A stretch of DNA of 64,000 nucleotides from Cenococcum geophilum (lineage: Eukaryota), in NCBI GenBank assembly GCA_050273025.1, contig CP158635.1, forward strand, positions 13,516,001-13,580,000, in the 5' to 3' direction. Position numbers and translations under genes: made by a program. The first letter of the stretch is position 1; each line of letters starts with the position of its first letter. Below, piece by piece: positions 11,031 to 47,867 of this stretch. The notes under the pieces are model-generated. The model did not search any database. It had not been told where the DNA came from and saw nothing but the letters and a program-made list of their open reading frames with translations.

Positions 11031-11034
11031 CGGA

Positions 11035-12785: not shown

Positions 12786-12894
12786 CTTAGGGGGATTCTC
12801 TAGGTGTTTTTCAGGGTTCTTTTGGTTGGTTTTAGTCTTTTTGGGCCGGGTGCAGCAAGAGCTCCAGTCAGTTTTTGAGGTCTCTTAATATAGG

Positions 12895-15990: not shown

Positions 15991-16479
15991 GATCTTATAA
16001 CTATACATAATAGATATAGCTATATATTTAGCGTAAGCAGTAGGGTTATAATAGTTATAATATTTATTATAATAAGGCCTTATTATTTTCCTAAATAGAC
16101 TTACTACCTAATTACTAGCCTTCTTATACTATTAAATAATTAACTTTTAATACTCCTATTTAAACTAATAGTATTAGTTAATAACTATTACTTAAACTAA
16201 TTATATAAAAAAGAGAGCTTTTATCTAACCCTTATATAAATATAATATAAATAGATAAACTAAGTAAACTATAGGCCTTATTAAATCTTTAAAAGTATTT
16301 AGGTAATATCTATTTAAATTAATAAAATATTAATATTAATATTTAACTAATCTCTTATAGGTTATTATCTACTTGTTTTTCTTAAATAAATAGTCTCTTA
16401 ATAGGGCTATATTTTATATTTACTAAAGAGTATATACTAGGCACTTATTTTATCTAAAATGCCTTTTATTAGAATTATA

Positions 16480-16820
16480 TATAAGAGGCCAGCTTGACCG
16501 GAACGTATGATTATCTAATTGACAGTGTTACTGGTAAGTAGAAGGTAAGTCAAAGGTAAGTTAAAGGTAAGTTAAAGGTAAGTTAAAGGTAGAATAAGTT
16601 TTACGTATTAAAGGACAAATGCTTTTAACCACTTCTATTTAGAGACTAATTGCTAGTTCTTCTTTAGAGGGGAACTAGCTTTCTATATATTCCTTTTAAG
16701 ACGCTAGTAAAACCTTTCGCCCCTAACCTATCTAACCATGTCTTCTAGAATATAGATAGGATATAGATGAAACCTCTTACCGTCTTATCGGATATATACC
16801 TCTTAGGGGATTCCGTTATA
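16480..16820 (-). repeat. 3' LTR of Gypsy A (341 bp)
   Basis: Direct repeat of 31826-32155 with four GGTAAGTTAAA-type units instead of three. Confidence 0.95.
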
Positions 16821-22600: not shown

Positions 22601-25143
22601 ATCTTTTTCTATTTAGTTATACTTTAGTATCTAGGTCTAGCTATATCTAGATAGGGATATAGTCTAGGGTAAGTACCTATTCTTCTTTAGGGTTATACCT
22701 TTTAAGTCTCTAGTATAGGCCTTTGTCTATAAATATAAGGTTAATTATACTTCTGGCGGTGCCTTATTGCCATATAATTACTCCTAGGGGGGTAGCTAGC
22801 TTAAGGCCCTAAATATCTATAGCTTTTAGTAGGCACTTTAACTATTAATCTACAGTAATATAGATGCCCCCCTACCGTGGGTAGTGGAGGTTTATATCTT
22901 CTAGTAGGATAAACTTTATACCTTTGGTTTCTAGTAAGCTTATTACTAATATAATATTCTCTATTTATAGGACCCCTTTAACCCTAGGGTTATATACATT
23001 AATAATTTATACCGGTCCCCTATATATTTAGATTATTATAACTACAATATCTAGGTTAACTACCTACTATAACTATAAGGATAGGCTAATAGCCTTGCTA
23101 ATTATAAAGCATATATATATAGCTGCTTTTAGTTTATATAGAAGCTGGAATCCTTAGGGGCAGTATATTAATTATATAAAGGTATTATAATACGGTTCTT
23201 ATATAGTAAGGATATAATATTTCTCTGGGTCTAGACTGTCTAGTAGGGGCCTTATAAGGCGGTAGTTTATATTACCGCAGTTATACTATATAATGGATAG
23301 GTGGCGGACCCCCGGCGAGGGTCCTTTAACTCTTCTTTGTTCCTCGCTTCTTTTATTTTTACTTTCTCTAGAATATTCGGAGCTTCTATCTCTTATATCT
23401 ACACCCTAGTTACTACTTATTTTATATAGAGCTTTCTATTCCTATGTCTTATATTCCTATTAGCGCTTCTATATCTAAATCTATTATTATTACTAGTTCT
23501 TCCCCTATTCTTACTAGTCGGCTATATACCCTTTATAGGTCAGCTATAAATGTTATATTTACCGCATTAAGTCTAATTCTTAATTGTCCTAGTTTTAAGC
23601 CTACTATTACTGTCTATAGGGGTCTTTCTATAGGGCGTCCTCTCCCTTATATCCCCTATAACCCTTATATCCCTAATTGGTCTAGTAATATTACGTAGCA
23701 TCGCTTCTGGCCCATTAAGGCTTAGGATGGCTAGCCTAGCCCTTTAGTATTAAAGGTAGGAAATGCTAGAAAGGCGCCTGCGTCCCCCTAGCTTATTGCC
23801 TATTATTTCTATTTATATAACCTAGCGTACAGTTATTCCCGTAGCTATTAAGCCCTTACCTTCCGTCTTCTGTATTTAATACAGTCTTCTCTCTCCCACG
23901 CCTTATATATGCTTTAGTAGCAGTTTACGCATTTTGTTTAGTCTTAATTTAAGCAATATCTTATATTGTAGGGGCCTATATAGTAGCTGTAGTATACCTA
24001 TACTGCGCATATAGATTAGGTGTGTCCCTATTATATATAGTAATAGTATTATTTTAGGCGTAGTCTGTAGTTATAGAGCATTATATTATATATAAGGCTA
24101 TTTATAATTATTTCTTTTTGGATAAGGAGTTTTTACATTCCTAGTATATATATGCTAACAATAAGGAAGCTATACGTTTATCCAGCGTCTCCCTAGCGAG
24201 TCTCCGGCAACCCTTATATTATTTTATTATTTTTATTATATACTTAGTTTATATTTTCTTATTAAAGCTATTAGATTTAGGTGATTTTAAGTCCTAGTAT
24301 AAGGCGTTCCGTTTATCTTACTATCTCCTATATAATTACTATATTATCCGCCTAGCGTCCCTTTTCTACCCTAAGGCTTATAGGAACTACTAGGACTTTA
24401 ACTAGGTAATCCTTACGGAGTACTTTTATGCTAATACATTCTCCTAGCCTATCCCCTACCCTTACGGCTTATTTCTTTACCTATTAGTCCTTTAACTCTA
24501 ATATCTCCGCTTTTAAGGTATTGGACTATAACAGCGTTATAGACCTCTTTACGTATCTCTATAAGGACTTCTATTTCTAATTATCCCCTAAGCCCCTCTA
24601 CTTATTTTATATTTAGTTATATTATAATTATATACCCGTTTATTAACTTAAGGGGGGTAGGTTCCCTGTGCTATAAAAGCGCAGCTACGGCGGCCTAGGT
24701 GCGGTTTGCCGATAAGGGGGAATTATACTTATTTTTAATTTTGCTTAGCTATTAGAGGATTTAATTAAGGATTTACTAGAGGGGCGCCTAAGATTCGCTA
24801 GACTAGCGGAGCCATTCTACTAGCTATATTAGTTTGTTATAGCTAATAGTTACTTCCCTATAATTTTAGATACTAGACGCGTCTAATAGGCTTTATATTT
24901 TATTAGATACCTTCTTAATAGAGGTATTTCCGCTTTATAGTGTGGTATTCGCCTATCTTTATTATAGAGGGCCATTGCTAGGTGTAGTCCTAGCGGTCGC
25001 ACGTAAATGCAAGCCACCGTCGTTTAACGTATGCCTCCCCTGCGATGCATGTATCTTAGGGGGATTCTCTAGGTGTTTTTTAGGGTTCTTTTGGTTGGTT
25101 TTGGTCTTTTTGGGCCAGGTGCAGCAAGAGCTCCTTTTTTTGG
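19603..25143 (-). mobile_element. Tad1-like LINE copy 2, inserted in the Gypsy A integrase
   Basis: Homologous to copy 1; 18-bp TSD TTGCCGTATTTTTAATAA (19585-19602 and 25144-25161); 9 extra bases at the 5' junction. Confidence 0.95.
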
Positions 25144-27644: not shown

Positions 27645-28107
27645 CTTAGAGGCTCTGTATAAGGCTCTACACAAAGCTCTATATAAAGCTCTGCGTATAG
27701 AGGCTCTGCACGAAGCTCTGCACGAAGCTCTGTATAAAGCTCTATATAAAGCTCTGCACGAAGCTTTGCACGAAGCTCTACACAAAGCTCTGTATAAAGC
27801 TCTGCATAAAGCTCTGCACGAAGCTCTGTACGAAGCTCTATATAAAGCTCTGCACGAAGCTCTGTATAAAGCTCTGCACGAAGCTCTGCACGAAGTTCTA
27901 TATAAAGCTCTACACGAAGCTTTGTATAAGGCTCTACACGAGGCTCTATATAAAGCTCTACGTATAAAGGCTCTACCCAAAGCTCTACGTATAGAGGCTC
28001 TACGCGAAGCTCTGCGTATAAAGGCTCTGCACGAGGCTCTGCACGAAGCTCTACATAAGGCTCTACGCGAAGCTCTATATATAGAGGCTCTACATAAAGC
28101 TCTGCAT
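27645..28107. repeat. 12-bp minisatellite (GAAGCTCTGCAC and RIP variants)
   Basis: Tandem array visible directly; source of the HEAL/YKAL repeat ORFs. Confidence 0.9.
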
Positions 28108-28224
28108 CGGGTCCCCGCTATATTCCCAATAGCCTCTCCTATATAGCCACCTTATTTTTTTTATCCATCTATCCTTCTTTATATCCTCCCTACCTAGGGA
28201 GGCACCAGAATGGCAGCTAGTAGA

Positions 28225-29100: not shown

Positions 29101-31825
29101 GAAGAGAACCATTGCTATATTATATTAAATTATCTAAAATAATATTTATTTTGCTAGCCTTATAAATAGCCTTAAAGTAGCTTTTATTTATTTAAAATAT
29201 GCTATTAGTATAAAAGAGGTAAATATAATTGTGGTTGCCAAATACGTAGATTGCTAGCAGGTTTCGCGTAGGTTACGCGTAGGCTACGCGCAGGCTGCGT
29301 GTCAAAAAAACACGATATAGGCTAGTCGGTCGAGTTGCCAAATGCCCTCAACTGCGCGCCAATTGCGTCAACCACTAACCATTGAGGCTATTGGTAGGGT
29401 ACCATATTTTGCCGATATAGTACTATTCGCACGTAGTGCGTATATGCTTTATAGTTATTAGAGTAGACTATAATGTTATTAAGGTAGACTATATATATTA
29501 TATCTAATAGGCCTAATAATGCCTTATTAATATAGGCCTAAAATATCGCTAGTGCGTTAGTGAGCCCAAATGGCATTACTAGGTACTTAAAGTGGCCGTA
29601 CTATATTCGGAACGCCGTTTTCTACTTATCGCCGGCTTTAATCCGGATTTAATGGTATATATCTTTTAGATCCAATTATATAAATATCTTTACGCCCAAT
29701 AGCCTATTAATAAGCTCCCCTATTAAGGGTAACAGGTAGCAATTCTTTATAGTAATTTTATTTAGCGCCTAATAGTCAACATAGAGGCGAAGGGTCCCGT
29801 CCTTCTTAGGTATAAATATAATTAGTGCCCCTGCCGGGCTTATAGAGGACCAAATCTATCCTCTCTAAAGATTGTCCACTATATATTAATGTAGTACCGC
29901 TAGCTTATTTTCTAATAGGTTATACAGTAGTCTAAAAAAAGGTTATTTATCTCCTGTGTTTATTTTATGCTCAACTAATATAGGGTTAGGTAAGATTTGT
30001 GCAGCCTCTTTACTAAAAATATCCTCTAAGTCTGTATATTCCTGTAGAATCTCTAGTTCCTTAACTACGTATAGCCGGATATCTAAAAATAAATATCCCG
30101 TATCCCCGTTCTTGGTATTAAGAGTAGCATATATAGCATATACCCACCCTTCTTCTTATATATGGTTTAAGAAAGTCTCTTAATCTTTAACTATAATGCG
30201 CGGTTAAGACTTCCGATGTTAATATAAGGCTAAAGGCCAATTAATGTCCGGATTAACTTAGTAAAGCTATAGGTATCCCAAAATAAGGTTATACCCCTTA
30301 ATTTCTATAGCATAGAAGCGCATCTCCTATATATCCCATAGACTATCGCGGTCCTAGCTGGCCATAGAAAAAGCCTACTCCCCGTAGTATGGAATCCGGT
30401 AGCCTTTAATGCTTTAAACAGTGCGCACCTACGAGCCGCTAAGGTCCAAATCTAATTCTTTTACTAGTAATTAAGAAATAAACCCTATACTCGCGCCACT
30501 GTCCACAAGGCAGTCTCGCGTTACCCATTTATTATTAACTTAAATAGAAACAGGAATAACCATACGGCAGTTTACTCTCTCTTTCTTTTACTAGCCTAGT
30601 ATAAGGGAGTAAAGATCTACTAGGCTGTCTTTTTTCCCAATTAGGCTAACTCTTACTTTTTTTACCAGTAGAAGCGGCTTATATAGCCCTTCTTGCCGTA
30701 GTTATAACAGGTACATGTCTCCCGGTTCCCCTCCTGCGGATTAGGTCTCTGCCTATTATTATTTTAAGGTTAACTAGCATTACTCTAGAGCTATAAGGCC
30801 TACTTATGTTGTCCTTTTATAGAGCGGTTAGGTCGGAATCTACCCCTATTACTAAAGCTAGGTCTAGTCCTACGCTCTTTATTATTAGCGTCTCATTCCT
30901 TTTACTTACCTAAATAGTCTCTTTTAGCACTCTTAATCTAAGTAGCTTTAGAGATAAGCTTTTCTTAAGAGGTAGGAATTTCGCCCTTCTTTTATATGGC
31001 CTATTAAATCTTAGGTTATAGCTTAGTAAGTAGCTGGTAAAGTTATATAGCGTTATCCTATAGATTTAAGTAGGGTATATTATCTTCTAGTTCTTATAAG
31101 TAGTTTATAAACTGGACCACAGTCTAACCATCCTGCTGTTTAGCGTCGTGGTATCACTAGTTATAGTCCATCCCTTAATTAGTAGGGTCTTAGACCTAAT
31201 TAACCAACTAGGTCCTAAGTTTGCTAAATTTAAGAAGTATAGTAAGTTTCTTCTTATAGCGTGTCTATAAACTCTTAACGGTGCTACATAGGAAGGTAAA
31301 AGCAATTAGTGTTTAATTATACTCGTTAGAGTAACGTTTCGGATCTAGCCAAAACTTAGTTTTATATTATTGGATAAAACGATTATAGTTCCGAAGACTA
31401 TCACTATAGTACTTATTAGGTTCCTTTATACGGAATTTAGGTTTTTTTAACGTTATAGCATAGTATAGCGTTACCCCTTTAAGTCTACTTCGTATCTAGG
31501 GTATCTGTACTTCCCCCAATTATCCTTATAATTGTTCTTAGTAGTTTTAATATACTTATCTTAATTATATCTCTAACTCCTTTGTTTTTTATAGGGTCTT
31601 ATATAGCAACCGCTCCAATAACTCCCCAGCGGTAATTGTTCCTAAGGGTCTCGCAAGGTTAGACGGACCAGCCGTGGCTTCTTTGTAGGAAGAGGAAATA
31701 CGCTCCTCTAGGGAGACTCTTTAAGCCTCTTACGGTAAGGGCGTTGCTTCATAGGGTATAGGAGTATAGTCCGTTATTGTTAATTAATAGCCGTACGTTC
31801 CTAACGGATTATAAGCAATTAGAAT

Positions 31826-32155
31826 TATAAAAGGCCAGCCTAACTAGAACGTATAATTATCTAATTAATAGTATTACTGGTAAGTAGAAGGTAAGTTAAA
31901 GGTAAGTTAAAGGTAAGTTAAAGGTAGAATAAGTTTTATGTATTAAAGGGTAAATGCTTTTAACCACTTCTATTTAGAGACTAATCGCTAGTTCTTCTCT
32001 AGAGGGGAATTAGCTTCCTATATGTTCCTTCTAAAACGCTAGTAAAACCTTTCGCCCCTAACCTGTTTGACTGTGTCTTCTAGAACATAGATAGGACATA
32101 GATGAAACCTCCTACCGTCTTATCGGATATGTACCTCCCGGGGGATTCCGTTACA
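31826..32155 (-). repeat. 5' LTR of Gypsy A (330 bp)
   Basis: Direct repeat of 16480-16820; ends CCGTTACA followed by TSD. Confidence 0.95.
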
Positions 32156-32340: not shown

Positions 32341-34480
32341 CTAAGGCCTATAATAGGCTAGGTAGGTATAGATAATACTACCTTACTTTTTACTTAGTTA
32401 CTAAATAGGTATATAAAAAAGTATATATCTATAAATAATTAACCCCTATTAGGTAATACTTAAAGACCTTATTACGTAAAGAAAAGAGGGGGGAAAGGTA
32501 TTATAGTAGATATTATAGTAGATATAAAGCTTTAGTAGAGCTTTAATAAAGCTCTATACGGAGCTCCGTGTATAGCTTTAGTAGAGCTTTATATAGACCC
32601 TTAGTAGAGCTCTATATAGAGCTTTAAAAGAGCTTCGCAGAGAGCCTTAAGCAGAGCTTTATGCAGAGCTTTAAGTAGAGCCTTTAGTAGAGCTCTATGC
32701 GGAGTCTTAGCAGAGTTTGTATAAAGCTTCAAGGGAGCTTCACAGAGAGCCTTAAGCAGAGCTTCGAGCAGAGCTTCGAGCAGAGCTTCGTGCAGAGCCT
32801 CAAGCAGAGCTTCAAGCAGAGCTTCGTGCAGAGCCTCAAGCAGAGCTTCAAGCAGAGCTTCAAGCAGAGCTTCGTGCAGAGCTTCGAGCAGAGTTCCGTG
32901 CAGAGCTTCGAGCAGAGCCTTTGGTAGAGCTCCATGCGGAGCTTCGGTAGAGCTCTACGCGGAGCTTCGGTAGAGCTCTATGCGGAGTCTTGGCAGAGCT
33001 TCGCAGAGAGCTCTGAGGGAGCTTCGCAGAGAGCCTCTGGCAGAGCCTTTGGCAGAGCTCCGTACAGAGCCTTTGGTTAAGCCTCTGACTCAGTTTTAGT
33101 ACGTGCTGTATTTAACCGAGAGTCTACTAATCTATAATAACTCTAGCTTAAAGCTAAACTCCATAATTAATTTCCCTAGCTACCAAAGCTTTACTAGGGG
33201 CTCTGCACGGGGCTGTGCACGGGGCTGTGCACGGGGCTTTTACAGGCTCTGCATGAGCTCTGTGCGGGCTGTCTACGGAGCTCTACCAAAGGCTCTGCAC
33301 GAAGCTCTGCCAGAGGCTCTCTGCGAAGCTCCCTCAGAGCTCTCTGCGAAGCTCTGCCAAGACTCCGCATAGAGCTCTACCGAAGCTCCGCGTAGAGCTC
33401 TACCGAAGCTCCGCATGGAGCTCTACCAAAGGCTCTGCTCGAAGCTCTGCACGAAGCTCTACTCGAAGCTCTGCTCGAAGCTCTGCACGGAACTCTGCTC
33501 GAAGCTCTGCACGGAACTCTGCTCGAAGCTCTGCACGGAACTCTGCTCGAAGCTCTGCACGAAGCTCTGCTTGAAGCTCTGCTTGAAGCTCTGCTTGAGG
33601 CTCTGCACGAAGCTCTGCTTGAAGCTCTGCTTGAGGCTCTGCACGAAGCTCTGCTCGAAGCTCTGCTCGAAGCTCTGCTCGAAGCTCTGCTCGAAGCTCT
33701 GCTCGAAGCTCTGCTCGAAGCTCTGCTCGAAGCTCTGCTCGAAGCTCTGCATGGAGCTCTGCTCAAAGGTCTGCTTAAGGCTCTGCACAAAGGTCTGCTT
33801 AAGGCTCTCTGCAACGTTCCCTTAAAGCTCCACGTAGAGCTCTACCAAGGCTCTACACGGAGCGCTACTAAAGCTATATATGGAGCTCTACATAAAGCTC
33901 TACCGAAGCTCCGTACGGAACTTTACTAAAGGCTCTACTTAAAGCTCTATATAAAGCTCTGCTTAAGGCTCTCTATAAAGCTCCCTTAAAGCTTTATATA
34001 AAGACTCTATATAAAGCTATACTGAAGCTCTATATAGAACTCTACTAAGGCCCTATATAGGGCTCTACTAAGGCTCTATATAGAGCTCTATACGGGACTC
34101 TACTAAGGCTCTATATAGGGTTCTACTAAAGCTCTATATAAAGCTATACTAAAGCTTTATATAAGGCTCTACTATAGCTTTATATAGAGCTCTATATCTA
34201 CTATAGATTAGATTAAAGTAATTTTTATTAATATTTAGTTCCTATATAAAATAATATTATACTAAATTAGTATTAGGCCATATAAAACTATTAAGCCTTA
34301 ATTAGTAGGAAGTAGATTCTATTTATAAAAAGTAGATATATAATAGGGATTAATTATTTATAAGTAATCCTTTTAAGATATTTAAATATTTATATATACG
34401 TTTTTATAGACCTATTTTATAAATAAGTAAGGAGTAAAGTAGTATTACCTATACCTATCTAACCTATTATAGGGTTTATA
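32341..34480. repeat. Large imperfect palindrome built from the 12-bp GAAGCTCTGC(T/A)C satellite around a ~100-bp unique spacer (~33085-33185)
   Basis: 32897-33046 is the exact reverse complement of 33304-33453; outer unique flanks 32341-32450 and 34341-34480 are also inverted homologues. Confidence 0.9.
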
Positions 34481-34797
34481 CTTATAGTTAAACCTATTAA
34501 AACTCTAGAACTTATAGCTTTTTAAAGTATATCTTTTTAAAATTAAAAACTTATAAGTTAATATAGTAAATAGTTTATTTTTTATTAAAAAAAGGTATAT
34601 TAATTAATTTTTAGTAATATAGCTATACATTAAGTAAAGCTACTTTATATTAAGTAGGGTAGACCTATAAAATATAGTAGCTAAATATAGAAATATTTAA
34701 TATTAGTACTTATAAGTTTTTAACCTTAGTATATTTATATAGGTAATAAACTTACCTTTTAGTAAGGCTTTAGTAAGGCCGGTTACTATCTATTTTT

Positions 34798-34882
34798 GCC
34801 CGCGAAGCCCTACTGCACGCGTCCACGTCGCCGCGGGTGGAAACATCATCAGGAATTCGTTCCTTTTGATGGCTAAGTGCAG
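34798..34882 (+). ncRNA. HDV-like self-cleaving ribozyme (predicted)
   Basis: P1 GCCCGCG/CGCGGGT with G1.U wobble; P2 CTGCAC/GTGCAG; P3 GCG/CGC; L3 TCCACGT; P1.1 CC/GG; P4 CATCA..AGGAA-TTCG-TTCCT..TGATG; J4/2 GCTAA with candidate catalytic C34873; G1 is the first base after the TSD. Confidence 0.9.
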
Positions 34883-36880
34883 AGGCGATGGTAGGGAGCC
34901 GTCGCAGCGCATGCAACGCGCTGTCGTCGCGGTTCTGTGGTGTTGAGCCCGCGACGCGTACCAAAGCATCGCCCTTAACAACACCAGGAGCCTTACTGCC
35001 TCCGCTTGAGGCTCCTGCTCTACTACCTAGGGAGGCTTATCAAGGGAAACTGGGATATGAAAACCACCCGATGTACGACTACCTGGCTCGTAGCCAGGCC
35101 CGAAACTGGTCTTATCATAGCCAGTCGATGTGGACGCGCCCTAGGCGTACAACAGGACACCCTTAGGCTTGCACTAGCTCTGAGATCGTAAAGGGATGCG
35201 GCGAGGGCGTAGGGAACCTCTTTTTATAAGAACTTGTTAAGGTTAACGCGTCGCAGGCACCTCGTACGAAACTTGTTAAGGCCCCAAGGCCACCGCGAAG
35301 AACTTGTTAAGGCCCTGCCTAGAGAACTCGTTAAGGCCCCTCTACGAGGGCCTATCTGGTACTACTCGACACTCAGGTGACTCAGAAGAGGGTCTTAATA
35401 GGCGTGGTGCGCGCGACCTGGACGACAGACGCGACAGCGACGCGACGGCGACGCGACGGCGACCAGACGGCTCGACGAGGTGGAAACACGGGCAAAGCTC
35501 TAGGCAGCGGAAACACAGGCCAGCTTCGACGGCCCCATGGCGTTCGACCAGGTGACTCACAGGAGGGTCTTAATAGGCGTGGTGCACGCAACCTAACGCG
35601 TATATATATGGGGGAGGCTCTAAGGAAACACAGGCCAGTCGGACGAGGTCCTCGACAGTTAGAGACACAGGCCAGCTTATAAAAAGGGGGGACACAAGCT
35701 TAGTTAGTAGGAGAGGGGGGAATAGGTCGCCTGGCACGAGACCTAGTCTATAGCCCCCTCTTGCAAGACACGGTCGGCCTATTATAAGGAGACTCTTACA
35801 GGTAACGCGAAACGGAAACTAAAAGGCCCGCGGGGCGTAGTACGTAGTAGCCGCTGCTAGCTCTAGGGACCTTACCCCTTAGCTAGGCTCTGACCCCTAG
35901 TGCACCTAGTAGGCAGGCAGGATCACGTCCTAGCTAGAGAGACTACTACGTAGCTCAAGAGAACGGATACGCGTGTCGGTGTACTAATAGACAGGACTGC
36001 TCGCTAGGGCAGTACGCTAGTAAGGGACGCTTAAGGAGCAAACAGGAGTTACTTAGGCGGGAGAGGTTTTAGCTAGGCCTTAACCGTAGAAGGTATACCT
36101 AGCTACATTGCAGGATACAGCCACGACGCCCTCGTAGGACTACGCCAGTAGGCGCGTAAGACGGAAGTTGCGACCCCTGCAAATGGCAGCTTATGCCCGC
36201 GCTAGCGGAAATAATAAAGAGAAGCGTAAAACTAGAGGCTATGGAAGGCTCCTAAGCCGTGCGAAAGCGTACCAACTCTAGGAGGAAACTCTTATATAGA
36301 CCGCTGGGGGGCGGACTAGTACTCGGGCCAATCCCGTTATAAGATATCTGAAAGAACTAGTAAGAATCCCCGTATTAGGTAGTAACAGCCAACTGCTTAT
36401 AGACTAGGACTAAAGTACCAAAAAACTGGGGTAGAGGCCTAGATAAGTAGGTGTATTAAACTCTACTATATTACTAGCTAATATATAACTACCTGCCTTA
36501 ACCACACATGCAACCTTACCAAAAGGTAGCGCCACACTCCAAAACTTACGCATACCCATCTTACCATCAAAAACAATCGATTTTCTAACTTTTAAGACCT
36601 AATTCCTACTGCCTAGCGAGCTAGAGGTGGATTTATTTGTCGTTTTACCCCCTTTTCCTAACAGAAAATTTTCTTTAAGGGTGGCCCTAGCTTATAAGCG
36701 AGGCACGGACAGGAACACTATACCTACTACCACCACCACTAATACCAAAACTACAAAATAGGGGCTAGTTTCTCTACTACCTCTTAGCCTAATCTCCCCA
36801 GAAATCTTCTAGTAGGATTAGTAAGGAGAAAAGGGTATAAGGACAGTAAAAACTAGGAAAACCCCTTTATAAGACACATA

Positions 36881-38265
36881 ATGCTAAGGCCCGGTAGGCC
36901 TAAAAAGAAACCTCCTATAGAAATAAGTGATAATAAGTCTATATCTACACTTACTTTTTCTGCCCCTTCTCCTTCCCCTAGCCTATTTGGGACAGGAGAA
37001 AAAAGAGGACATCCTTAGTCTTCTACTGAAAAAGAAAACTAAAAACCTGCAAAAAAGACAACCAAAATGAGGACTTTTATGGCTGGTATACAGAGTATAT
37101 CTTTTACTCCCCTTTCTCCAGAATAACACCTACAAAAGGCTCTAGATAGCCTAACCCAGGCCTATAAAGGGCTAGAAGAAAAAGAAGAAGAAGAAGAAGA
37201 AAATAAAAAGGAATAAATTAAACAGCTAGAGGACTATACACGTAGTGTTCTAGTAGGAGAAAACCCCTTTATAAAAGGAAAAGAAAAGACAAACAATGTC
37301 CTAAAAGGACTAGTCGAAGAAGTAAGAGCTCTCCGTAAGGAGGTAGCCCCTACTAAAGAAACCTACGCAGAGAGGCTAAAGAAGGACCTCTCTACTTCGT
37401 CCTCTCTACCCTCCTTATCACTACCATTTCCTACTCCTTCTACTTCTACTAGAAGTAAGAAAAAGCAGCTATAAGAAAGAAAGCTAGTCTTAATTACAAA
37501 CTAAAAGGACTAACCTTTAGATACCTTCGCTATACGAAATAAAGTCAATTAACTATTTACATTAAAACTGTAAGTAGAAAAACCTGTTTTAGTATCTATA
37601 ACTAGAACTAAAGGAAAACAAAATATTCTCCTTATAACTACGGAAGAGTATAATGCGGATTTCCTAGTTAAATATAAAGAAATCTGGCATAACTGCTTTA
37701 CCTTTTAAAGAGAACAAAAACTAGAACCTTGGGTTTAAATTATAGCCCATGGGGTTCCTACCCTACCTTTCTTAGGAGAAGGAGGCTCTAAGTTCTAAAA
37801 GAAGAAATTGAGACCTTTAATCCTATAAGGATATAAGGACTACCTAGATGGATCTTATCTAGTGTAAAAAGACACGATCCACAGATTAGATTTAGCTCTA
37901 TAGTTTTTACTATAGAGAACGAAGAAAAAGGACAAGAAATCCTTAAGTAAAAAGAGATATCAATTGCAGGTACAGCTACTAAGGTAGTAAAATACCTCGA
38001 AGTCTCTCCCACTACGCAGTGTACGAGCTGCCAAAAATTTGGCCATATAGGAGATAGGTGCTCTACTAGGGCCTACAGATACTATGCGGCTGTACATTTA
38101 TCTAAAGACTATTCCTGTTCTACCTGTATAATAACAGGCAAGCCTTGCCAGCATACCACCCCTCTTTGCATTAATTGTAAAGAAAAACACTTTGCTAATA
38201 GTAAAGACTGCGAGACTCTTAAAGCTGCTAAACTAGTACGCGAAGAAGAATCTATGGAAGAATAA
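36881..38265 (+). pseudogene. LINE ORF1-like gag protein of a second LINE family, with no ORF2 downstream; RIP stops and frameshifts
   Basis: ETYAERLK, IAHGVPT, GLPRW, SSIVF, QCTSCQKFGHIGDRC...CSTC...CQH...CINCKEKHFANSKDC; followed by only ~310 bp before the A tail; start approximate. Confidence 0.85.
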
Positions 38266-38989
38266 AAACAGATAGGTTTCTAGAAGGAGGCAACTCCTAC
38301 TAGGCTTTTAAAAAGATATTAGAGAACAAAAGGACAGGAACAGGGGTTAGGATTTCTTATAGTTTTTCTTACCATTTTCTTATTCCCTAGTAGTTGTAGT
38401 ATCTTAGTATTTTACTAGGAAACTATAAACTCCTAATTTAGGGGTTTATAAACTACTAGGACATAGCTACTAGTATATATTAAGCTGCCTAGAAAGGATT
38501 TATGTATATAGAACTGTAGCGCCATAGCCCAAGGCTGCATGCGTAGTATTGTACGTAGTATAATACAATAGATATAAAAAATAAAAAAAAATAAAAAAAA
38601 CTATCTATTTTTATATTAAAATATACTATAAGTCTACTTTTTCTTTAGCCGATCTTTTCTATATATAGTAATATTAAATTATAATATACTTTATCTTAAA
38701 GTAGAATTAGATATTTTTAGTTAATAGTATAATGCCTTAATTATTCCTATAGATTATAGTTACTATTAGGTCTTTTTCTAACTTAAATAGCTCTACTAAA
38801 AGGTATTTAAGCTAGACGGCTTACTTAAAAGCCTATTTTTCTCCTATATATTTAGCCTTATAAAATAATAAAATAAGAACTACTTATCCTTTTAATACCT
38901 AGCTAATTATATAAGGTTTAATAGCTTTATATAGCTTAATACTCGTCTAGCTAAGACTTAGTTATATATTTTTTAAAAAAAAATAGAGA

Positions 38990-39580
38990 AAAAGGTATTA
39001 TAGTAAATATAAAGCTCTATATAGAGGTTTAATAGAGCTATATATAAAGCTTTAGTAAAGCTACATATAGAGCCTTAGTAGAGCTCTATATATAGCTTTA
39101 GTAGAGCTTTATATAGGCCTTTAATAGAGCCCTATATAGAGCTTTAGTAGAGCTCTATATAGAGTTTTAGTAGAGCTTTGTATAGGGCTTTAAGGGAGCC
39201 TCGTAGATAGCCTTTAGTAAAGCTTTTTAATAAAGCCTTTGGTAAAACTTTATATAAAGCTTATATAAAGCTTATATAAAGCCCTATATAGAGTATTTAA
39301 TAAAGCTTTAATAGTTAGGGAAATTAATTATAGAGATTAGCTTTAAGCTAGAATTATTATAGATTAATAAACTCTTAATTAAATATAGTATAGACTAAAA
39401 CTAAGCTAGACGCTCTACTAAAGGCTTTGCTAAAAAGCTCTATAGAAAGCTCTACTATAAACCCTCTATAAAGCCCTTAAAACCCTATATAAAGCTCTAC
39501 TAAGATTCTATATAGAGCTCTACTAAAGCTCTATATAGGACTTTACTAAAGGCTCTATTAGAAGTTTTACTAAAAGCTCT
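38990..39580. repeat. Second, fully RIP-mutated copy of the 12-mer satellite palindrome, spacer in reverse orientation
   Basis: 39305-39410 is the reverse complement homologue of 33085-33190; AGAGCT-type arrays on both sides. Confidence 0.75.
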
Positions 39581-39581
39581 A

Positions 39582-42500
39582 TATAAAACCTTTAAGGGAG
39601 ATATAAAAGGTAATATAGTATAGACCCCTCTAGGTAGTATACCTGTACTATATTAATAAGAGGGAAAATACTATTAGGTCTCTACTTTAAGACTTTTATA
39701 AAGGAGTATTCTAACTACCATCTTACCCTATTTACCCTTTATACTATACTTCTATATTATTATAGATTGTTATTAAATATTCTTACCTACCTACCCTTAG
39801 CTTTATTCTACTCTATATATATATATCTATATTGCCTATAGTCCTTTTACCTATAGCTAAATTACTAAGGGCCTATTAATAGAGGTTATTATATATAGAC
39901 TAGGTATACTTTAAACTTATAGTAAAACTTAACTATATGGCTTCCTATTAGATTAGCTATAGGTTATATAACTAGTACTATAAAAGTTATAGATTATACT
40001 AAGGCACTATAAGCTGTTCTTATATTACTTATAGTCTAGTTTAAGGGATTTTTAGCCTTAAACCGCTTAGTATATACCTTAATTTAGTAGAGGCCTTAGT
40101 TAATAACTAGGTAGTAATTTACAAGTTTCTTTAATATCTATATAGTAGTAAAAACTAGTAGTATAAACTATAGATTTAAGGTAAGCTTATTAAAGAGGTC
40201 TAATTAATAATAATTTATTGCTTAACGTCTGATTCGGATCCCTATTGGGCCCACGCGGACTACTCCTTATTTACATATAGGGAGAAAACTCTATTTAAGA
40301 AAAATGAGAAAACCCCATAATCCATCTCCCCGCCTTTTAGGACTCGCCTACTTAGCGCCTATAAGTCGCCTATAGTGCTCTACTACCTTACTGTTTAACC
40401 TCCTTAAGAACCACTGCTGCCGTAATAAGCCTATAGACGCGCTAGTATTATAAACTATTACTCTACTACTATAGAGTTACTAGGGGGCACCTACTACTTG
40501 CCCCCTTGCCTTCTATTATTATTTCCTTTATAACCTAGAACTAATTTAGCATATTTTAACTAATAAGCCACTAGGTAACCGTCTTAAGGCCTTTTTATAT
40601 TAAGAGTAGTGTATTATAGTTCTCTGTGCCAGCTGCTAAGAGTATTATTTCTTAATTAGTACGTAGGGGGCATAGCAGTATTACGTGTTTTAGTGTCTGT
40701 TTTAGCCAGCTATATTTATATCTTAGGCTACCTACTAGGACACCTACCTAGTAAAGCCAATCTTTTAGTCCTATTATTCCTGTTCTTAAGAGTATTGCTA
40801 TTATATTTTCTGCCTTTATTAGGCCTTCTTAGAGCCCTTAGGTATTTACCCCCTATAGCGTTAACTATACTATAGCTTAGGTTTATTTTGCCTAAGTTAG
40901 CCTCTATACCTTTAACTCCCATTTACCTCTCTAGCATTAGTCCAACCAGTATTATATTACGGTAGATGGTTTCCTAACATTCTTATATATTCTACTTTAG
41001 CTCCTTTCTCTGTCTTACTATTATCTTTACTAACCTTTTATACGTCTCCCTTCCTCCTCTATATAGGCCTAGGCCTTAAAGCGGTACTATTCTTTTTCTA
41101 CTTTCTTTACCTGTTTCTCTAATATCTCTTCCCTATTTTAGGGTTATTGGTTTATTCTCCTATAGGGCACCCTAGGGTCCCTCCATAGTTTACTTAGGCG
41201 TGTCTTAATATACTTTATAATATTAGAGTTGCGTTTATTTTATATCCTTTATATTGCAGCGGCTTTAATATATAACTATAGGGGGGGAATATTGGATTCC
41301 TTCTTAAGTAGTGCTGTGGCTGTTTGCTTATACCCGCCTATAATACTCTAAAGGCAGGCTATTTAGACCTTTTAAAGTGGTTTAAGGAGTAATTTAGGGG
41401 GGCCCTTCTTAGTTTCTCTAATGGCCTAAATACTGGATCTATATATTATGGTTAGCCGGACAACTACTATATATAGTAGGCGTGACCTCTAGAAGTATGG
41501 ACCTTATATAGAATTAACAATCCTAGATAAAGCAATGAACTGTACTTAGCCTTTATGGGCCGCTTGCGCCGTATATGCGCTTTACTAGAGCTTATTATCT
41601 ACCTATACTCCTAATACCCTTAGGCCCTAAACTAGTTAACCTTTAAAGCCTTAGATGTAAATTATATACTAAAGATCTATAGATTGGTTGCGTTTTCTTA
41701 TAAAATAGATTAGCTAGTATTTCTCTGGTAAGAATTAGACTCTATAATATTTTGCCTATTCTATATAAGTATTATAAGCTTTCTCTAGTGTTCTGCAATT
41801 CTCTACGGTTGTTGGCCCGTATATAATTAGGTTTATATTATTAACAAAGCCTATCCCCCAGGTTGCCCCTTCCTTAAAGGAGTTAAGTAGGTTGCTTATA
41901 AAGAAAAGGAAGAGTATAGGCAAGAGGGGTAATCCTTATAGTATTCCTATTGTAATTGCGATAGGGGGGCTCTGGTATCCGCTAAAGACTAGTAATATTT
42001 TTTTCTGGCCTATAAACCCTTGGACAAATTATATAATCTATTTTAGGAAGCCCTTTACCCTAAGGATATATAGGAGACGCTTATGGGGTATATTGTCGTA
42101 GGCACCACTAATGTCTAGGCTAAGCATTAATACTATAAAGTCCTTTTATATCACCTATGCAGATTTAATAGTGGTAGTGAGTAGCGTAAGTGCTAATAGT
42201 ATTAAGCGGTTCTTTCTTGCCCCTATTTGGCTTTATAGTAGTAAGGCGTGTTCCTTTACCATATTTACTATGCGTTCCGCTATTACCCTTTTTAAGATCT
42301 TACTAAGGGTGTTTTCTAAGGCAATAAGGCGGTAGCTTCCTAGGATTAAGTAATCTACTTTACCTTTTTTTTATAGGATAACTATTATTATAGATCTTCT
42401 AAGTTACGGGTAGTAGCCTATAGTAAAGCATACTCTGGCTATATCTATAAGCTAAGGTGCTATAAGTGGCCTATAGGTTTTTAGGGCCTTATTTAAAATC

Positions 42501-45500
42501 CTATCTAGTCCTAGTACTATATTATTTAAAAGGCGGCTAATAGTTCTAGCTATTTCCTCTGTTATTATATCGCTATTAACCCATAGGCGAGTTACCGGTA
42601 TTTCGCCTATAATATTACTAAGGTCTGCTAGAGCTAGTTAGGGGAAGAACCTTTCTATAAGGATCTTTACCTTCTTATTATTATTATTTATAGCCTATAA
42701 TTCTCCTGCTCTTTATAGGGGTAGTAGGTATAGGTCTTTTACTAGGCGCCCTACCTTTTCTTTACCTATTTTGCTATAGCCTAAAGGCCCTTATTATAGG
42801 GGAGGCTTAGGTTAAAAGTATACTTATTTATAAACCGTCTCTAGTTATTCCTTACTTCTTTTTTTAGGGTATTCTTTAGCTAGTTTCTTATGTCTTTATA
42901 TTATCTCTTATCTTTAGGGTTATAGCTACTTATATATTTCCTTCTTACTTATTATTAGCTGGTAACCAGAACTATATATTATATAGACTATGCGTGTTAC
43001 GTATAGGGGCCCAGTTTTAAGATCAGGCAGTGCTCTTTTAGCCTATTTTTAATTACTGCCTAGATCCTTTTTAGTCTTCGGTTGATTTCCTTAGGGGTGG
43101 CTAATAAGCCTCGCTTGTTTGGTATTGGGTGGATTTCTTTTAGGTCTTAAAGTTGTTGTTTAACTGCATTAAGGAAACTGTCTATTTTAAGCTTCCTTAT
43201 TATATATCTTTTTCTATTTAGTTGCGCTTTAGTATCTAGGTCTAGCTATATTTAAATAGGGATATAGTCTAAGGTAAGTGCCTATTCTTCTTTAGGGTTA
43301 TACCTTTTAAGTCTCTAGTATAGGCCTTTATCTATAAATGTGAGGTTAATTATACTTCTAGCGGTGCCTTATTGCCATATAATTGCTTTTAGGGGGGTAG
43401 CTAGCTTAAGGCCCTAGATATCTATAGCTCTTAGTAGGCACTCTAACTATTAATCTACAGTAATATAGATGCCCCTCTACTACGGGTAGTAGAGGTTTAT
43501 ATCTTTTAGTAGGATAGACTCTATACCTTTGGTTTCTAATAAGCTTATTACCGATATAATATTCTCTATTTATAGGACTCCTTTAACCCTAGGGTTATAT
43601 ATATTAATAATTTATACCAGTCCCCTATATATTTAAATTGTTATAACTATAATATCTAGGTTAACTGCCTGCTATAACTATAAGGATAGGCTAATAGCCT
43701 TACTAATTATAAAGTATACGCGTGTGGCTGCTTTTGGTTTATATAGGAGCTAGAATCCTTAGGGGCAGTATATTAATTGTGTAAAGGTATTGTAATACGG
43801 TTCTTGTATAGCAAGGATATAGTATTTCTTTAGGTTTAGACTGTTTAGTAGGGGCCTTATAAGGCGGTAGTTTATATTACCGCAGTTATACTGTATAATA
43901 AATAGGTGGCGGACCCCCGGCGAGGGTCCTTTAACTCTCCTTTATTCCTTACTTCTTCTATTTCTACTTTCTTTAGGATATTTAGAGCTTCTATCTCTTA
44001 TATCTACACCCTAGTTACTACTTATTTTATATAGAGCTTTCTATTTCCGTATCTTATATTCCTATTAGCGCTTTTATATCTAAATCTATTATTATTACCA
44101 GTTCTTCCCCTATTCTTACTAGTTGGCTATATACCCTTTATGGGTTAGCTATAAATATTATATTTACCGTATTAAGTCTAATTCTTAATTATCCTGGTCT
44201 TAAGCCTACTGTTACTATTTATAGGGGTCTTCCTACGGGGCGTCCTCTCCCTTATATCCCCTGTAACCCTTATATCCCTAATCGGTCTAGTAATATCGCG
44301 TGGCGTTACTTCTAGCCCGTTAAGGCTTAGGATAGCTGGCCTAGCCCTCTAGTATTAAAGGTAGGAAACGCTAAAAAGGTGCCTATGTCCCTATAGCTTA
44401 TCGCCTATTGTTTCTATTTATATAACCTAGCGTGCAGTTATTCCCGCAGCTGTTAAGCCCTTACCTTCTGTCTCCTGTATTTAATACAGTCTTCTCTCTC
44501 CTACGCCTTATGTGTGCTTTAGTGGCAGTTCGCGTATTTTATTTAGTCTTAATTTAAATAGTGTCTTATATTATAGGGGCCTATATAGTGGCCGCAGTAT
44601 ACCTATGCTGCGTATATAGATTGGGTGTGTCCCTATTATATATAGCGATAGTATTATTCTAGGTATAGTCTGTAGTTATAGAGCCTTATATTGTATATAA
44701 GGCTATTTATAATTATTCCTTTTTAGATAAGGAGTTTTTATATTCCTGGTGTATATATACTAACAATAAGGGAGCTATATATTTGTCTGGTGTCTCCCTA
44801 GCGAGTCTCTAACAACCCTTATATCCTCTTATTGTTTTTATTATATACTTAGTTTACATTTTCCTATTAAAGCTATTAAATTTAGGTGATTTTAAGTCTT
44901 AATATAAGGCGTTCCGTTTATCTTACTATCTTTTATATAATTGCTATGTTGTTTACCTAGCGTCCCTTTTCTACCCTAAGGCTTATAGGAACCGCTAGGA
45001 CTTTAACTAGGTAATCCTTACGGAGTACTTTTATACCAATACGTTCTCCTAGCCTATCCCCTACCCTTATAGCTCGTTCCTTTACCTATTAGTCCTTTAG
45101 GGTAACTTTAATATCTTCGCTTTTAAGGTATTAGACTATAATAGCGTTATAAACCTCTTTATATATTTTAATAAGGACTTTTGTTTCTAATTATCCCCTA
45201 AGCCCCTCTACTTATTCTATGTTTGGTTATATTATAATTATATACCCATTTATTAACTTAAGGGGGGTAGGTTCCCTATGCTATAAAAGCGCAGCTATGG
45301 CGGCCTAGGTGCGGTTCGCCGGTAAGGGGGGGTTATACTTATTTTTAATTTTACTTAGCTATTAGAGGATTTAATTAAGGGTTTACTAGAGGGGCGCCTA
45401 AGGTTTGCTAAACTGGCGGAGCCATTCTACTAGCTATATTAGTTTGTTATAGCTAACGGTTACTCCCCTGTAATTCTAAATACTAAACGCGTCTAATAGG

Positions 45501-46974
45501 CTTTATATTTTATTAGATGCCTTCTTAATAGAGGTATTTCCGCTTTATAGTGTGGTATTCGCCCGTCTTTATTGTGGAGGGCTATTGCTGGGCGTAGTTC
45601 TAGCGGTCGCGCGCGAGTGCGAGCCACCGTCGTTTGACGTATGCCTCCCCTGCGATGCATATATCTTAGGGGGATTCTCTAGGTGTTTTTTAGGGTTCTT
45701 TTGGTTAGTTTTGGTCTTTTTGGGCCGGGTGCAGTAAGAGCTCTTAAGGGGGTAGGTTTTCTAGTTTAATAGGGGCGAGTCTAGTAGAGTTATGGGGTAA
45801 GGTTGCTTAAGAGGTCTAATTATAAGTCTTTTTAAGAAATTTAGGCCTAGTTAACTAGGTATAAAAAGTGAGTCTAAAGGCTAAAAGGTCTCTATTATTT
45901 TTATTATTAGGCCTTTATAATTAAGGTAAATATTCTATACCTTAAAGGGGTCCTTATAAATAGAATATAGGTAGTTTATTATCTTTTCTTTATAGAGAAG
46001 GGGGTTTACTAAGTCTTAAGTATATCGCGGATATAGGTATATCTAAGTATTTCTACTAATATAGCTAAAGATATAGGCTATTTTTACTAGGGTAATAGGG
46101 AATAGTCTATATTAACTTTAAGCTTATTCTATAATTAAAGCTTTTAGTACTTTATAAAATTAGCCTTTATATATCTATATAGTAAGGCTTAAGAACTTAA
46201 TAGCTACTATTAACATTTTATCAAAATTATATTAATAAACTACTAGAGTAAACGCGGAGATATATATAGAGCTATATAGCGCTAATGCTACGATATAGTA
46301 GTAGTACGGAAAGTTTTTCTATTAGGAGGTTAAGCCCTAATAAAGGCCTATAAATACAACTACTATATCTTTATATATATATCTACTATACTTAGATTAC
46401 AGCATTAACCTATAGTAGTAATCCCCTTCTTTTTATATAGTATAGTAATATACTATATAGTACCTATATATAGCTAAACCGTATATATCTTATAGGTAAA
46501 AGGCCTATAATAAACCTCTTATCTAAAATAACTTCTACTCTCTTTATATCTTAACCTATCTAATATATTATAATATATATTATAGTATAGGTACCCAGCT
46601 ATAGGGGCTTAGTATACCCTTATATCTAATATTAGATTAAGGGCGCTATTAAATATAGAAAGATAAGAAATAGAGGTAAAGAAGGATTATTAAAATAGGG
46701 AGAGTTATTTAGCTATAAGTAGGAAGACTATCGGCAACGCGGATATATATATAAAGTAATAAAAAGCTAGGGATAGGTAAGTAATAATATTTAATAGCAA
46801 TTAATAATAATATAAAGGGTAAATAAAGTAGGATAAATAATTAGGATACTCCTTTATAGGACTCTTGGAGTAATAGCCTAGTAGTATTTTTCCTCCCATT
46901 AATATAGTATAGATATACTACCTAGAGGGGTATATACTATATTACCTCTTTTATCTTTCTTAATGGATTTTATA
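39582..46974. mobile_element. Unclassified relic bounded by ~270-bp inverted repeats (39582-39864 and 46705-46974), interrupted by LINE copy 3
   Basis: CCCCTCTAGGTAGTATA...TATAAAGGAGTATT...TTTACCCTTT on the left matches the reverse complement of the right block; interior not decodable. Confidence 0.5.
40207..45808 (-). mobile_element. Tad1-like LINE copy 3 with ~65 bp of foreign sequence at its 5' junction
   Basis: Homologous to copy 1 up to 45743; 14-bp TSD AAGAGGTCTAATTA (40193-40206 and 45809-45822). Confidence 0.93.
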
Positions 46975-47782
46975 CCTAATATTAACGGGATTAGTTTTTA
47001 TAAACCTTATTTAGGACCGTATTAAATAATAATTAAGAGTTAATAATATTAGCGCCTTAGTTAATTAAGGTATAAGTATAATAAGAGGGATGTATACAAG
47101 CCTATATAGTTAAATTATCTATAAATAAGGATCTAAAGCTAGAGAAAGAAAAAGAAAAGAAATTAGCACCGCTTAATATTTTATAAGATCTTTATATTAC
47201 ATAATCGTAATATATAGTAGTTTATAGTAACTTGCTAGTATAGAGAACTATAAAGTTTTGCTAAGTTCTACTAACTAAATTCTACTATTTTCTGCTAGTG
47301 CCGTAATATTATCCCCCCCCTTAATAAAGCCTACCCTTAGGCTTTATATATCTATATTACTCCTATAGGGCGTTCTTATCCTTATATTCTTCTAGTAGCT
47401 TATTATCTTTACTATACTAGCAGTATATCTACTTATTTAGGAGCTTTAAGAGTTCTAGTTTATTAGGGTAATAGCTATAAAAATTTTAAAACTTATAGGG
47501 ACTGCTAATAAAGTTCTATATAAGGTACTAGGTAGGATTTAAATTATAACCTTTCTAATTAACGTAGTATTTTAGTGTTCTCCTTACTAGTATTTCTTTA
47601 ATTTCCTGTTATCGCTATTAACTTAAATTAGTAAGGGGGGTTAATTCTTTTATTTAGGTAATAGGTTATCTATAGCTTTTTATAGCTTATTTAGTAAGAA
47701 AATAGGGTAAAGCTTTATTAAATCTAAGAGTTTTACCTTATATAAGTTGCCTTTCCTTTTAAGAACCTTATATAGTCCTAAT

Positions 47783-47867
47783 GCCTGCGACGCCCTACTG
47801 CACGCGTCCACGTCGCCGCGGGTAGAAACATCATCAGGAAAACCTTCCTTACGATGGCCAAGTGCAG
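47783..47867 (+). ncRNA. HDV-like self-cleaving ribozyme (predicted), copy 2
   Basis: P1 GCCTGCG/CGCGGGT; identical P2, P3 and L3; P4 CATC..AGGAA-AACC-TTCCT..GATG; J4/2 GCCAA; P1.1 GG changed to AG at a RIP-type TpG site. Confidence 0.85.

Follow-up and report, generated by a model that had tools for sequence, protein, structure and literature searches.

In this study, we analysed a stretch of 64,000 nucleotides from the fungus Cenococcum geophilum (assembly GCA_050273025.1, contig CP158635.1, positions 13,516,001 to 13,580,000 of the forward strand), which is called the window below and whose own numbering is used throughout. The window contains two copies, A and B, of a chimeric retroelement. 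The 5' part of each copy is a 1.7-kb non-coding module that begins with a predicted self-cleaving ribozyme of the hepatitis delta virus (HDV) type, and the 3' part comes from another retroelement. Copy A spans 34798-38599 between two exact target-site duplications (TSDs), and an A-rich tail precedes the right repeat. The features of copy A are given one per line; the module is called WEIRD-like after the non-coding RNA of the Magnaporthe grisea element MINE, which is compared below.

34785 to 34797, plus strand: left TSD of copy A, ACTATCTATTTTT, an exact 13-nt repeat that ends directly before the first base of the element (G1).
34798 to 34886, plus strand: HDV-like ribozyme fold, with a predicted cut between 34797 and 34798 and a putative catalytic C at 34873.
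34798 to 36497, plus strand: WEIRD-like 1.7-kb non-coding module of copy A, from the ribozyme to the conserved end ...TATATAACTACCTGCC.
36418 to 36497, plus strand: conserved 3'-terminal hairpin and tail of the module, from an 18-sequence alignment.
36498 to 38599, plus strand: 3' part of copy A, a different retroelement of poly(A) type, from the list of open reading frames (ORFs) and the sequence.
38600 to 38612, plus strand: right TSD of copy A, the second copy of ACTATCTATTTTT.

The nested double pseudoknot of HDV type that the preliminary description had placed at 34798-34882 is confirmed, and all the helices it named, the loop L3, the GG of P1.1, the UUCG-capped P4 and the joiner J4/2 were found at the coordinates it gave. 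As read from the sequence, P1 pairs GCCCGCG (34798-34804) with CGCGGGU (34832-34838) over 7 bp including the wobble pair G1.U, P2 pairs CUGCAC (34813-34818) with GUGCAG (34877-34882), and P3 pairs GCG (34819-34821) with CGC (34829-34831). L3 is UCCACGU at 34822-34828, and C34824 and C34823 are able to pair with G34839 and G34840 to form P1.1. P4 has two parts, 34844-34848 with 34867-34871 and then 34851-34855 with 34860-34864, and is closed by the UUCG loop at 34856-34859; J4/2 is GCUAA (34872-34876) and contains C34873. In topology, P3 is nested with P1, P2 crosses P1, P1.1 crosses P3, and P4 lies between P1.1 and J4/2. RNAalifold, which cannot draw pseudoknots, recovered P2 together with a likely 3-bp extension (34807-34809 with 34884-34886) and the outer part of P4, and the single-sequence nested fold of the copy A ribozyme recovered P1, P3 and P4. 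The ribozyme of copy A had been called intact, and this also held: it differs from the majority consensus of 118 aligned sequences in only two places, the P4 loop and J4/2. The J4/2 base of copy A (T, alignment column 81) is a common variant in alignment A3, as judged by eye without a count. Self-cleavage at G1, and with it the release of the element RNA from upstream transcripts, is what this anatomy predicts together with the covariation and the boundaries described below.

A self-written descriptor of the HDV type, which is not the published one, matched the window at 34798 on the plus strand only. Among shuffled controls, it matched 3 of 200 windows shuffled block-wise by dinucleotides and none of 3000 shuffled versions of the GC-rich 1.7 kb. 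With the Rfam family HDV_ribozyme (RF00094), the model aligned over its full length at 34796-34889 (E 0.022 on 301 bases and 0.15 on 2 kb), and the score was 28.4 bits, under the gathering score of 50. Rfam at gathering scores gave no match in the whole window, and in E-value mode over 34700-36700 only two weak unrelated matches were listed besides the HDV match. We take the RF00094 model to be built from HDV isolates, and its consensus-structure (CS) line has the P2 segments without marked pairs. The letters common to the Rfam HDV alignment and copy A are UCC in L3, the joiner GGxAAC and AUGGCUAA. The minimum free energy (MFE) of the nested fold had a z of -1.19, and 23 of 200 shuffles folded equally well; an unremarkable nested MFE is expected of a pseudoknot. 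A covariance model made from the 118-sequence alignment gave 121 bits for copy A and 108 bits for copy B, the next window match had an E of 0.5, and nothing beyond the two known copies was found in the window on either strand.

Relatives of the ribozyme were searched in metagenome contigs with an exact 23-mer from the core, which covers part of the P2 5' strand, P3, L3, P3' and most of P1'. At least 121 loci carry this 23-mer (loci are written L001 and so on where they have to be told apart). The alignment holds 118 sequences, 91 of them distinct, and consists of the 2 window copies and 116 listed loci; L041 and L116, which have lost P4 and P2', L096 and L106, which are 5'-truncated, and L088, which is cut by a contig end, were left out. 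When the pairs were counted on a structure taken from one sequence of the alignment itself, the full pseudoknot had standard pairs in 96.5% of cells across the 118 sequences, compared with 34-55% when the partners were slid. Both sides had changed in 6 of 28 pairs, and none of 500 shuffles attained the covariation score. P1.1 and P3 are invariant (P3 and most of the P1 pairs cannot vary, because the search 23-mer fixes them); the support for compensation rests on P2 and P4 and on few lineages. The most frequent double change was C-G to U-A in P4, found in 11 distinct sequences. Four kinds of change are incompatible with repeat-induced point mutation (RIP), namely U-A to A-U in P2 and UA to GC, AU to CG and AU to UA in P4, each in 3 sequences. 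In the diverged subfamily of L025, L063 and L104, the whole P4 is replaced by another hairpin at the same place, while the core is kept and P2 is compensated. All 118 sequences keep C34873. The G1.U wobble is present in 84 of the 89 distinct sequences that have letters at this pair, and A-U takes its place in 4.

The 5' boundary was counted in the 119 listed loci with at least 20 upstream bases. The start GCCCGCG was found in 106 of them, a variant by one to three bases in 11, and 2 are truncated inside the ribozyme; the switch from upstream DNA to the element thus falls exactly at G1 in 117 of 119. The frequency of the commonest base rises from 0.47 at -1 to 0.93 at +1, and the upstream flanks of 116 listed loci fall into 112 unrelated clusters. 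The preliminary description had equated the predicted cleavage site with the TSD edge, which is true for both window copies and for all five complete short metagenome copies listed. In these chimeras the TSD lies flush with G1 without an extra base (one of the five is degenerate). The uniform start base of all copies would be due to the ribozyme fold at the first bases of the element.

In the same flanks, positions -14 to -12 are nearly devoid of G and C (4-8 of the 119 listed loci), and T and A dominate from -15 to -9. This AT-rich stretch lies at TSD-length distance and looks like the target preference of an integrating endonuclease. The locus L111 (minus strand) differs in that the 283 bases upstream of G1 have a normal GC content and do not look RIP-mutated; it is a candidate for a source locus or for an uncleaved precursor.

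The element had been described as a non-autonomous retroposon with a ribozyme at its exact 5' boundary. The boundary and the lack of autonomy stand, and the short simple retroposon gives way to a longer, chimeric element. The homology between copies A and B starts at G1 and is confined to the first 1700 bases. Copy B and most of the 50 listed long loci (those with at least 1900 bases after G1) carry homologues of this module. It has no codon periodicity (60, 56 and 61 mismatches by codon position, with 127 gap columns in 1095), its ORFs gave no Pfam match, and the telomerase-template-like repeats CCCTAA and TTAGGG are absent from it. Both termini are the most conserved parts of the module. At the 3' end, a hairpin pairs 36431-36436 with 36461-36466 and 36437-36440 with 36449-36452; an AU-rich spacer comes next, and then the tail AACUACCUGCC, which is identical in the three subfamilies inspected (winA, L025 and L063). 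In the 18 sequences of alignment A4, 98.3% of the cells of this hairpin are paired, 6 of 10 pairs have changed on both sides, and none of 500 shuffles attained the score; the compensatory changes come from L025 and L063, two diverged lineages. Scripts matched the fixed 3' end ...AACTACCTGCC at 45 listed loci and in copy B, which gives 46 joints, and some of these matches look spurious. The module of L025, a locus from another data set, is only about 72% identical inside, but its ribozyme core and its final 17 bases are unchanged; it is joined to a zinc-knuckle ORF.

Within the module, about 310 bases of copy A (36096-36404) are missing in copy B and in several contigs, which show skip joints from 36069-36094 to 36422. 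In L009, the 3' end of a full module runs into a partial second module, which starts at this insert of copy A (about 36096-36404); this arrangement suggests, from the sequence, template switching from module to module. A 46-base motif is repeated at 35374-35419 and 35549-35594 with 91% identity. It is about 87% alike in the diverged L025, where it belongs to the better conserved stretches, and an extra copy occurs in copy B and in many RNA reads (go-back joints from 35594 to 35550).

The second copy in the window shows the same module on a different partner. Copy B spans 47783-55379, and the module is interrupted by a full-length 5.5-kb long interspersed nuclear element (LINE).

47769 to 47782, plus strand: left TSD of copy B, TATATAGTCCTAAT, an exact 14-nt repeat that ends directly before G1.
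47783 to 47867, plus strand: degraded ribozyme of copy B, from the alignment and the covariance model.
47783 to 49264, plus strand: first part of the copy B module, by homology to copy A, interrupted by the nested LINE.
49265 to 54821, minus strand: nested full-length 5.5-kb LINE with APE endonuclease and reverse transcriptase, heavily RIP-mutated.
54837 to 54859, plus strand: final 23 bases of the copy B module, ...AACTACCTACC, from the sequence at the LINE ends.
54860 to 55379, plus strand (sense): LINE-derived half of copy B, the 3'-terminal 520 bases with an AAT/TAA-type tail, from an inverted match to 49256-49782.
55380 to 55393, plus strand: right TSD of copy B, the second copy of TATATAGTCCTAAT.

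The 15-bp TSD of the nested LINE, AACTCTACTATATTA, lies at 49250-49264 and 54822-54836, and no continuation of copy B was found past 55393. The ribozyme of copy B carries C4 to U (a G.U pair in P1), A for the first G of P1.1, an A.C mismatch in P4, an altered P4 loop and GCCAA as J4/2. It fails the descriptor and has lost one P1.1 pair and one P4 pair. The joint of copy B lies at LINE position of about 5046, and GCC stands just upstream of this position in all four LINE copies of the window. In copy A, the 3' part contains a remnant ORF with Cys/His knuckles (37951-38265), which gave no Pfam match, and the A-rich tail occupies about 38575-38599.

The same LINE is also found on its own in the window.

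7327 to 12932, minus strand: stand-alone 5.5-kb LINE without the module, TSD TAATTACTCTTATATA.
19599 to 25134, minus strand: stand-alone 5.5-kb LINE without the module, from self-BLAST.
40205 to 45743, minus strand: stand-alone 5.5-kb LINE without the module, from self-BLAST.

Together with the nested copy (49265-54821), these four LINEs lack the ribozyme module, and each is surrounded by a TSD as judged by eye. Because TSD-flanked copies without the module exist, the 5.5-kb LINE is a complete mobile unit without it. The four copies are 90-92% alike, have 35-38% GC and contain 160-220 stops per frame, and the stops and the low GC look like the result of RIP. When stops were read as X, Pfam gave RVT_1 at 55.5 bits and, weakly, Exo_endo_phos_2 at 20.9 bits; the LINE encodes ORF1 knuckles, an APE endonuclease and a reverse transcriptase, and ends with an AAT/TAA-type tail. 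The 5' ends of these LINEs vary by tens of bases, one copy being 57 bases longer and another having about 60 extra bases before the TSD.

After the end of the module, 25 of the 50 listed long loci enter the 5.5-kb LINE in sense at different internal points, and 4 (L005, L006, L029 and L068) enter the 3' element of copy A at other internal points. The remaining 21 continue in different sequence, including RNase H ORFs (L039 and L003), or are broken by insertions. Besides the 5.5-kb LINE, the module has been joined to no fewer than two further types of retroelement, of which one ends in poly(A) and one has RNase H. Of the 46 joints examined in the listed loci and copy B, 27 are LINE joints, and they fall at about 20 different LINE positions between 17 and 5185. 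The two LINE bases directly before the joint are CC at 10 of 20 positions, whereas the background is 0.05 (binomial P of about 6e-8), and both are pyrimidines at 15 of 20. Where the LINE has TC, CT, GC or TG at the joint, the chimera carries these LINE letters and not the terminal CC of the module. The last two bases of the module hence act as microhomology. In the five complete short chimeras listed, the partner keeps its own tail, which is A-rich or of the AAT type. In L063 (positions 1402-1497 of the locus), which also comes from another data set, the module runs at its 3' end straight into the last part of a tyrosinase central domain (Pfam 28.9 bits). This locus, as read from its sequence, is probably a chimeric retrocopy of the module and a messenger RNA; the contig stops ahead of any tail or TSD.

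Four sequencing runs were aligned over 34400-38800. Only one of them is a stranded RNA run with raw reads, and the runs available as contigs cannot show RNA ends. The depth was zero in both flanks and began at the element. Contigs that break exactly at 34798 into other upstream sequence were found once in run X1, whose library is recorded as RNA and may hold DNA, and twice in run X2; the X1 contig ends at 34798 in a flank similar to that of L111. In the raw-read run, the minus-first-mate value over 35429-35575 was 49 vs 2.7, an excess that in most stranded libraries means sense transcripts. Of the 413 aligned reads, 364 were only 90-95% alike and therefore come from other copies. These results show that related copies of the module are transcribed.

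What is observed here comprises the fold with its covarying helices, a 5' boundary that is exact in more than 100 insertions, a 3' end that is fixed, joints that vary in position and show CC microhomology, and TSDs. We think it quite probable that these have one explanation: predicted self-cleavage would set the 5' end of a hitchhiker RNA, which the LINE reverse transcriptase reaches by template switching. The first 85-89 bases would fold as an HDV-like ribozyme and cut the transcript directly before G34798. Because the catalytic parts are all on the downstream side of this cut, read-in transcripts from any insertion site would be trimmed to one and the same 5' end, which would presumably be an uncapped 5'-OH. 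The product would be a 1.7-kb non-coding RNA with a 3' hairpin and the fixed terminus ...CUGCC, and it would have no LINE tail of its own. The LINE reverse transcriptase would begin target-primed synthesis on the LINE RNA, or occasionally on another RNA, and quit this first template at a variable point, usually after copying CC. The nascent complementary DNA could then re-anneal to the 3'-terminal CC of the module RNA, and the module would be copied up to the ribozyme-made G1, which would give a chimera of the module and a 5'-truncated partner within a single flanking TSD. Template switching as the joining step is suggested by the joints, and the benefit of a ribozyme-made 5' end would follow from the same account. 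A narrower version is that the module is an obligate template-switch hitchhiker, with the ribozyme at its 5' end and the 3' hairpin and ...CUGCC as a landing pad, and that a fresh chimera is made at each insertion. We put this forward tentatively and are somewhat more inclined to doubt it than to accept it.

The ribozyme could also be the true 5' untranslated region of the 5.5-kb LINE, as in R2 and L1Tc, in which case the joints would be internal deletions. HDV-like ribozymes at LINE 5' ends are a known pattern in the available part of the literature (PMC6765202), and L022, L041 and L067 join the module to LINE positions 17-44, that is, to a nearly whole LINE. But the four LINEs of the window have no module inside their TSDs, retroelements of at least two other kinds and a tyrosinase fragment also serve as partners of the module, and all the deletions would need an identical start base, the last C of the module. 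The CC microhomology suits a jump onto a free 3' end. For these reasons, we consider a 5' untranslated region unlikely. We give about the same small weight to the idea that the fold is a non-cleaving relic or a look-alike and that the 5' end comes from an internal promoter starting at G1. Internal promoters do set many LINE and SINE (short interspersed nuclear element) 5' ends, the Rfam score is below its threshold, and cleavage is only predicted here. On the other side, compensatory changes keep the helices, one subfamily has swapped P4 for another hairpin, and neither the J4/2 C nor the core letters in common with HDV vary. An extra base at the TSD junction is common for capped L1 RNAs; in 7 of 7 cases here, G1 follows the TSD directly, which speaks against a capped RNA.

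Another idea is that the module stems from an autonomous circular RNA of 1.7 kb, similar to delta or viroid RNAs, which the LINE reverse transcriptase has repeatedly captured as DNA. If one 5'-cleaving ribozyme acted on multimers, both fixed ends would be accounted for; the module is non-coding with its termini most conserved, and its 1700 nt and about 57% GC resemble those of HDV. The predicted fold of the module, though, is branched and not rod-like, with 63% of the bases paired and 18 long-range pairs, and no ribozyme was found on the opposite strand, either with Rfam over 34700-36700 or with our own covariance model over the window, so that the module lacks these features of deltaviruses and viroid-like RNAs. 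No head-to-tail junction was seen by eye among the 121 listed upstream flanks, which were not tested by script, no go-back joint from 36497 to 34798 was among the read joints listed, and the core 23-mer had 0 matches in a viral contig collection. We regard this circular origin as a shade less credible even than the two preceding ideas. There remains chance complementarity in GC-rich DNA, for which only the unexceptional nested MFE speaks. It is refuted by the shuffles of the window and of the module, by the exact boundary and by the covarying helices, and we give it practically no credence.

Several points weigh against the proposal that predicted self-cleavage sets the 5' end of an RNA joined to its partners by template switching. 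The C-G to U-A change in P4 has to be discounted because RIP alone would yield it, and the RIP-incompatible compensatory changes come from few lineages. Most of the listed loci come from three metagenome data sets, probably representing one or two fungal genomes, and selection by the 23-mer keeps P3, L3 and the greater part of the P1 3' strand constant and tilts the sample to intact cores. The RF00094 score is below the gathering score, and the other HDV-like Rfam families gave no match at E up to 10. In the raw-read run, reads covered the ribozyme to a depth of only about 2 and no accumulation of read starts was reported at 34798, so this run is silent on cleavage. At the other end of the module, no known ribozyme or Rfam RNA was found over 34700-36700, no A-run was found at the 46 inspected joints, no head-to-tail module copy was noticed in the flanks inspected by eye, and no free module RNA ending in ...GCC was seen. 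Several joints (for example, LINE position 3129) are common to two to four listed loci with different flanks, so that part of the chimeras may multiply ready-made, as non-autonomous units, instead of forming anew.

Studies have shown that HDV-like ribozymes lie at the first bases of R2, RTE/baggins and L1Tc elements and are thought to free the element from co-transcripts (PMC6765202 and PMC3185411, as far as the available text goes). The module shares with these elements the same double pseudoknot, the G.U pair at the cleavage site, the C of J4/2, the position of the ribozyme as the first bases of the element and the supposed role, release from read-through transcripts. Unlike in R2, RTE and L1Tc, the ribozyme here heads a non-coding RNA that is distinct from the LINE and is joined to several LINE families at variable points, and the host is a fungus. 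In addition, the IRES-like role (internal ribosome entry site) proposed for the R2 and L1Tc ribozymes in the available text has no downstream ORF to serve here. The ingi and RIME elements, relatives of L1Tc, belong to the same group of retrotransposons with HDV-like ribozymes. Within an incomplete coverage of the literature, we found no paper that connects an HDV-like ribozyme with WEIRD or with a retroelement of fungi. The sole fungal trace that we met is a remark on unpublished sequence data of Penicillium chrysogenum in the available part of PMC3185411.

The closest likeness in architecture is to MINE of Magnaporthe grisea. According to the available part of its description (PMC2104539), MINE consists of a full-length 1.1-kb non-coding WEIRD and a variably 5'-truncated MGL LINE within repeats of 10-20 bp, the consensus at the joint is GCC, chimeras with other RNAs occur, and no solo WEIRD gene was found. 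The chimeras were attributed there to template switching of the LINE reverse transcriptase, and the nature of WEIRD was left open. In both systems, the 5' part is always a full-length non-coding RNA of about 1-2 kb, the LINE is truncated at variable sites (28 sites in 33 MINE elements vs about 20 sites in 27 joints here), and one TSD of 10-20 bp surrounds the whole chimera, with GCC at the joint in MINE vs CC or GCC here. They differ in that WEIRD has no ribozyme described, and its 5'-end formation and source gene are unexplained, in the available text of PMC2104539, and in that WEIRD has 1.1 kb and the module 1.7 kb. The chimeric architecture found here thus matches the one described for MINE.

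Two further systems can be compared. In the U6-L1 chimeric retrogenes, a full-length small nuclear RNA is joined to a 5'-truncated LINE or messenger RNA within TSDs, which was explained by template switching (summarised in PMC2104539, available in part). The likeness lies in the full-length small RNA as the 5' part, the 5'-truncated partner and the TSDs. The 5' end of the module apparently comes from the predicted self-cleavage, and the module, which has more than 100 copies and in which the ends are conserved and the interior varies, has the look of a dedicated selfish element and not of a housekeeping RNA. The ends of U6, in contrast, are made by initiation and termination of RNA polymerase III. 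Retrozymes, too, are non-coding and non-autonomous retroelements, and self-cleaving ribozymes set the ends of their RNA; they have hammerheads on both sides and circular RNAs. The module resembles them in being non-coding and non-autonomous and in the RNA end that a ribozyme is predicted to set, and differs in having a single HDV-like ribozyme at the 5' end only, with no tandem or circular junction seen.

If the view of the module as an obligate hitchhiker were true, WEIRD of Magnaporthe would belong to the same class and should also begin with an HDV-like ribozyme. In a few LINEs of animals and trypanosomes, HDV-like ribozymes are known to trim the 5' end. Such a device, predicted here to act in the same way, is now placed in a fungus, where its carrier is a non-coding RNA that is distinct from LINEs and rides several LINE families. 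This offers a testable answer to the question of 2005-2007 about the identity of WEIRD-type RNA, its constant full length and the absence of a solo gene. With defined acceptor ends, a conserved hairpin and CC microhomology, in more than 100 insertions with 46 joints examined, the module may also serve as a natural system for studying template switching by LINE reverse transcriptases. An insertion of MINE into an avirulence gene has been reported (PMC2104539, available in part); such chimeras can disrupt genes and hence matter for genome change in fungi.

Outside the elements described above, the window contains long arrays of short GC-rich tandem repeats at 27650-28110, 32500-34200 and 39010-39590 and also at 4455-4720. 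In these arrays, both strands are open in several frames (translations of the LEALLEAL type), and they are common to several places of the window, some of them inverted. Further dispersed repeats were found at 58024-58327 and 63678-63981 (92% alike) and at 16468-16818 and 31818-32153 (87% alike).

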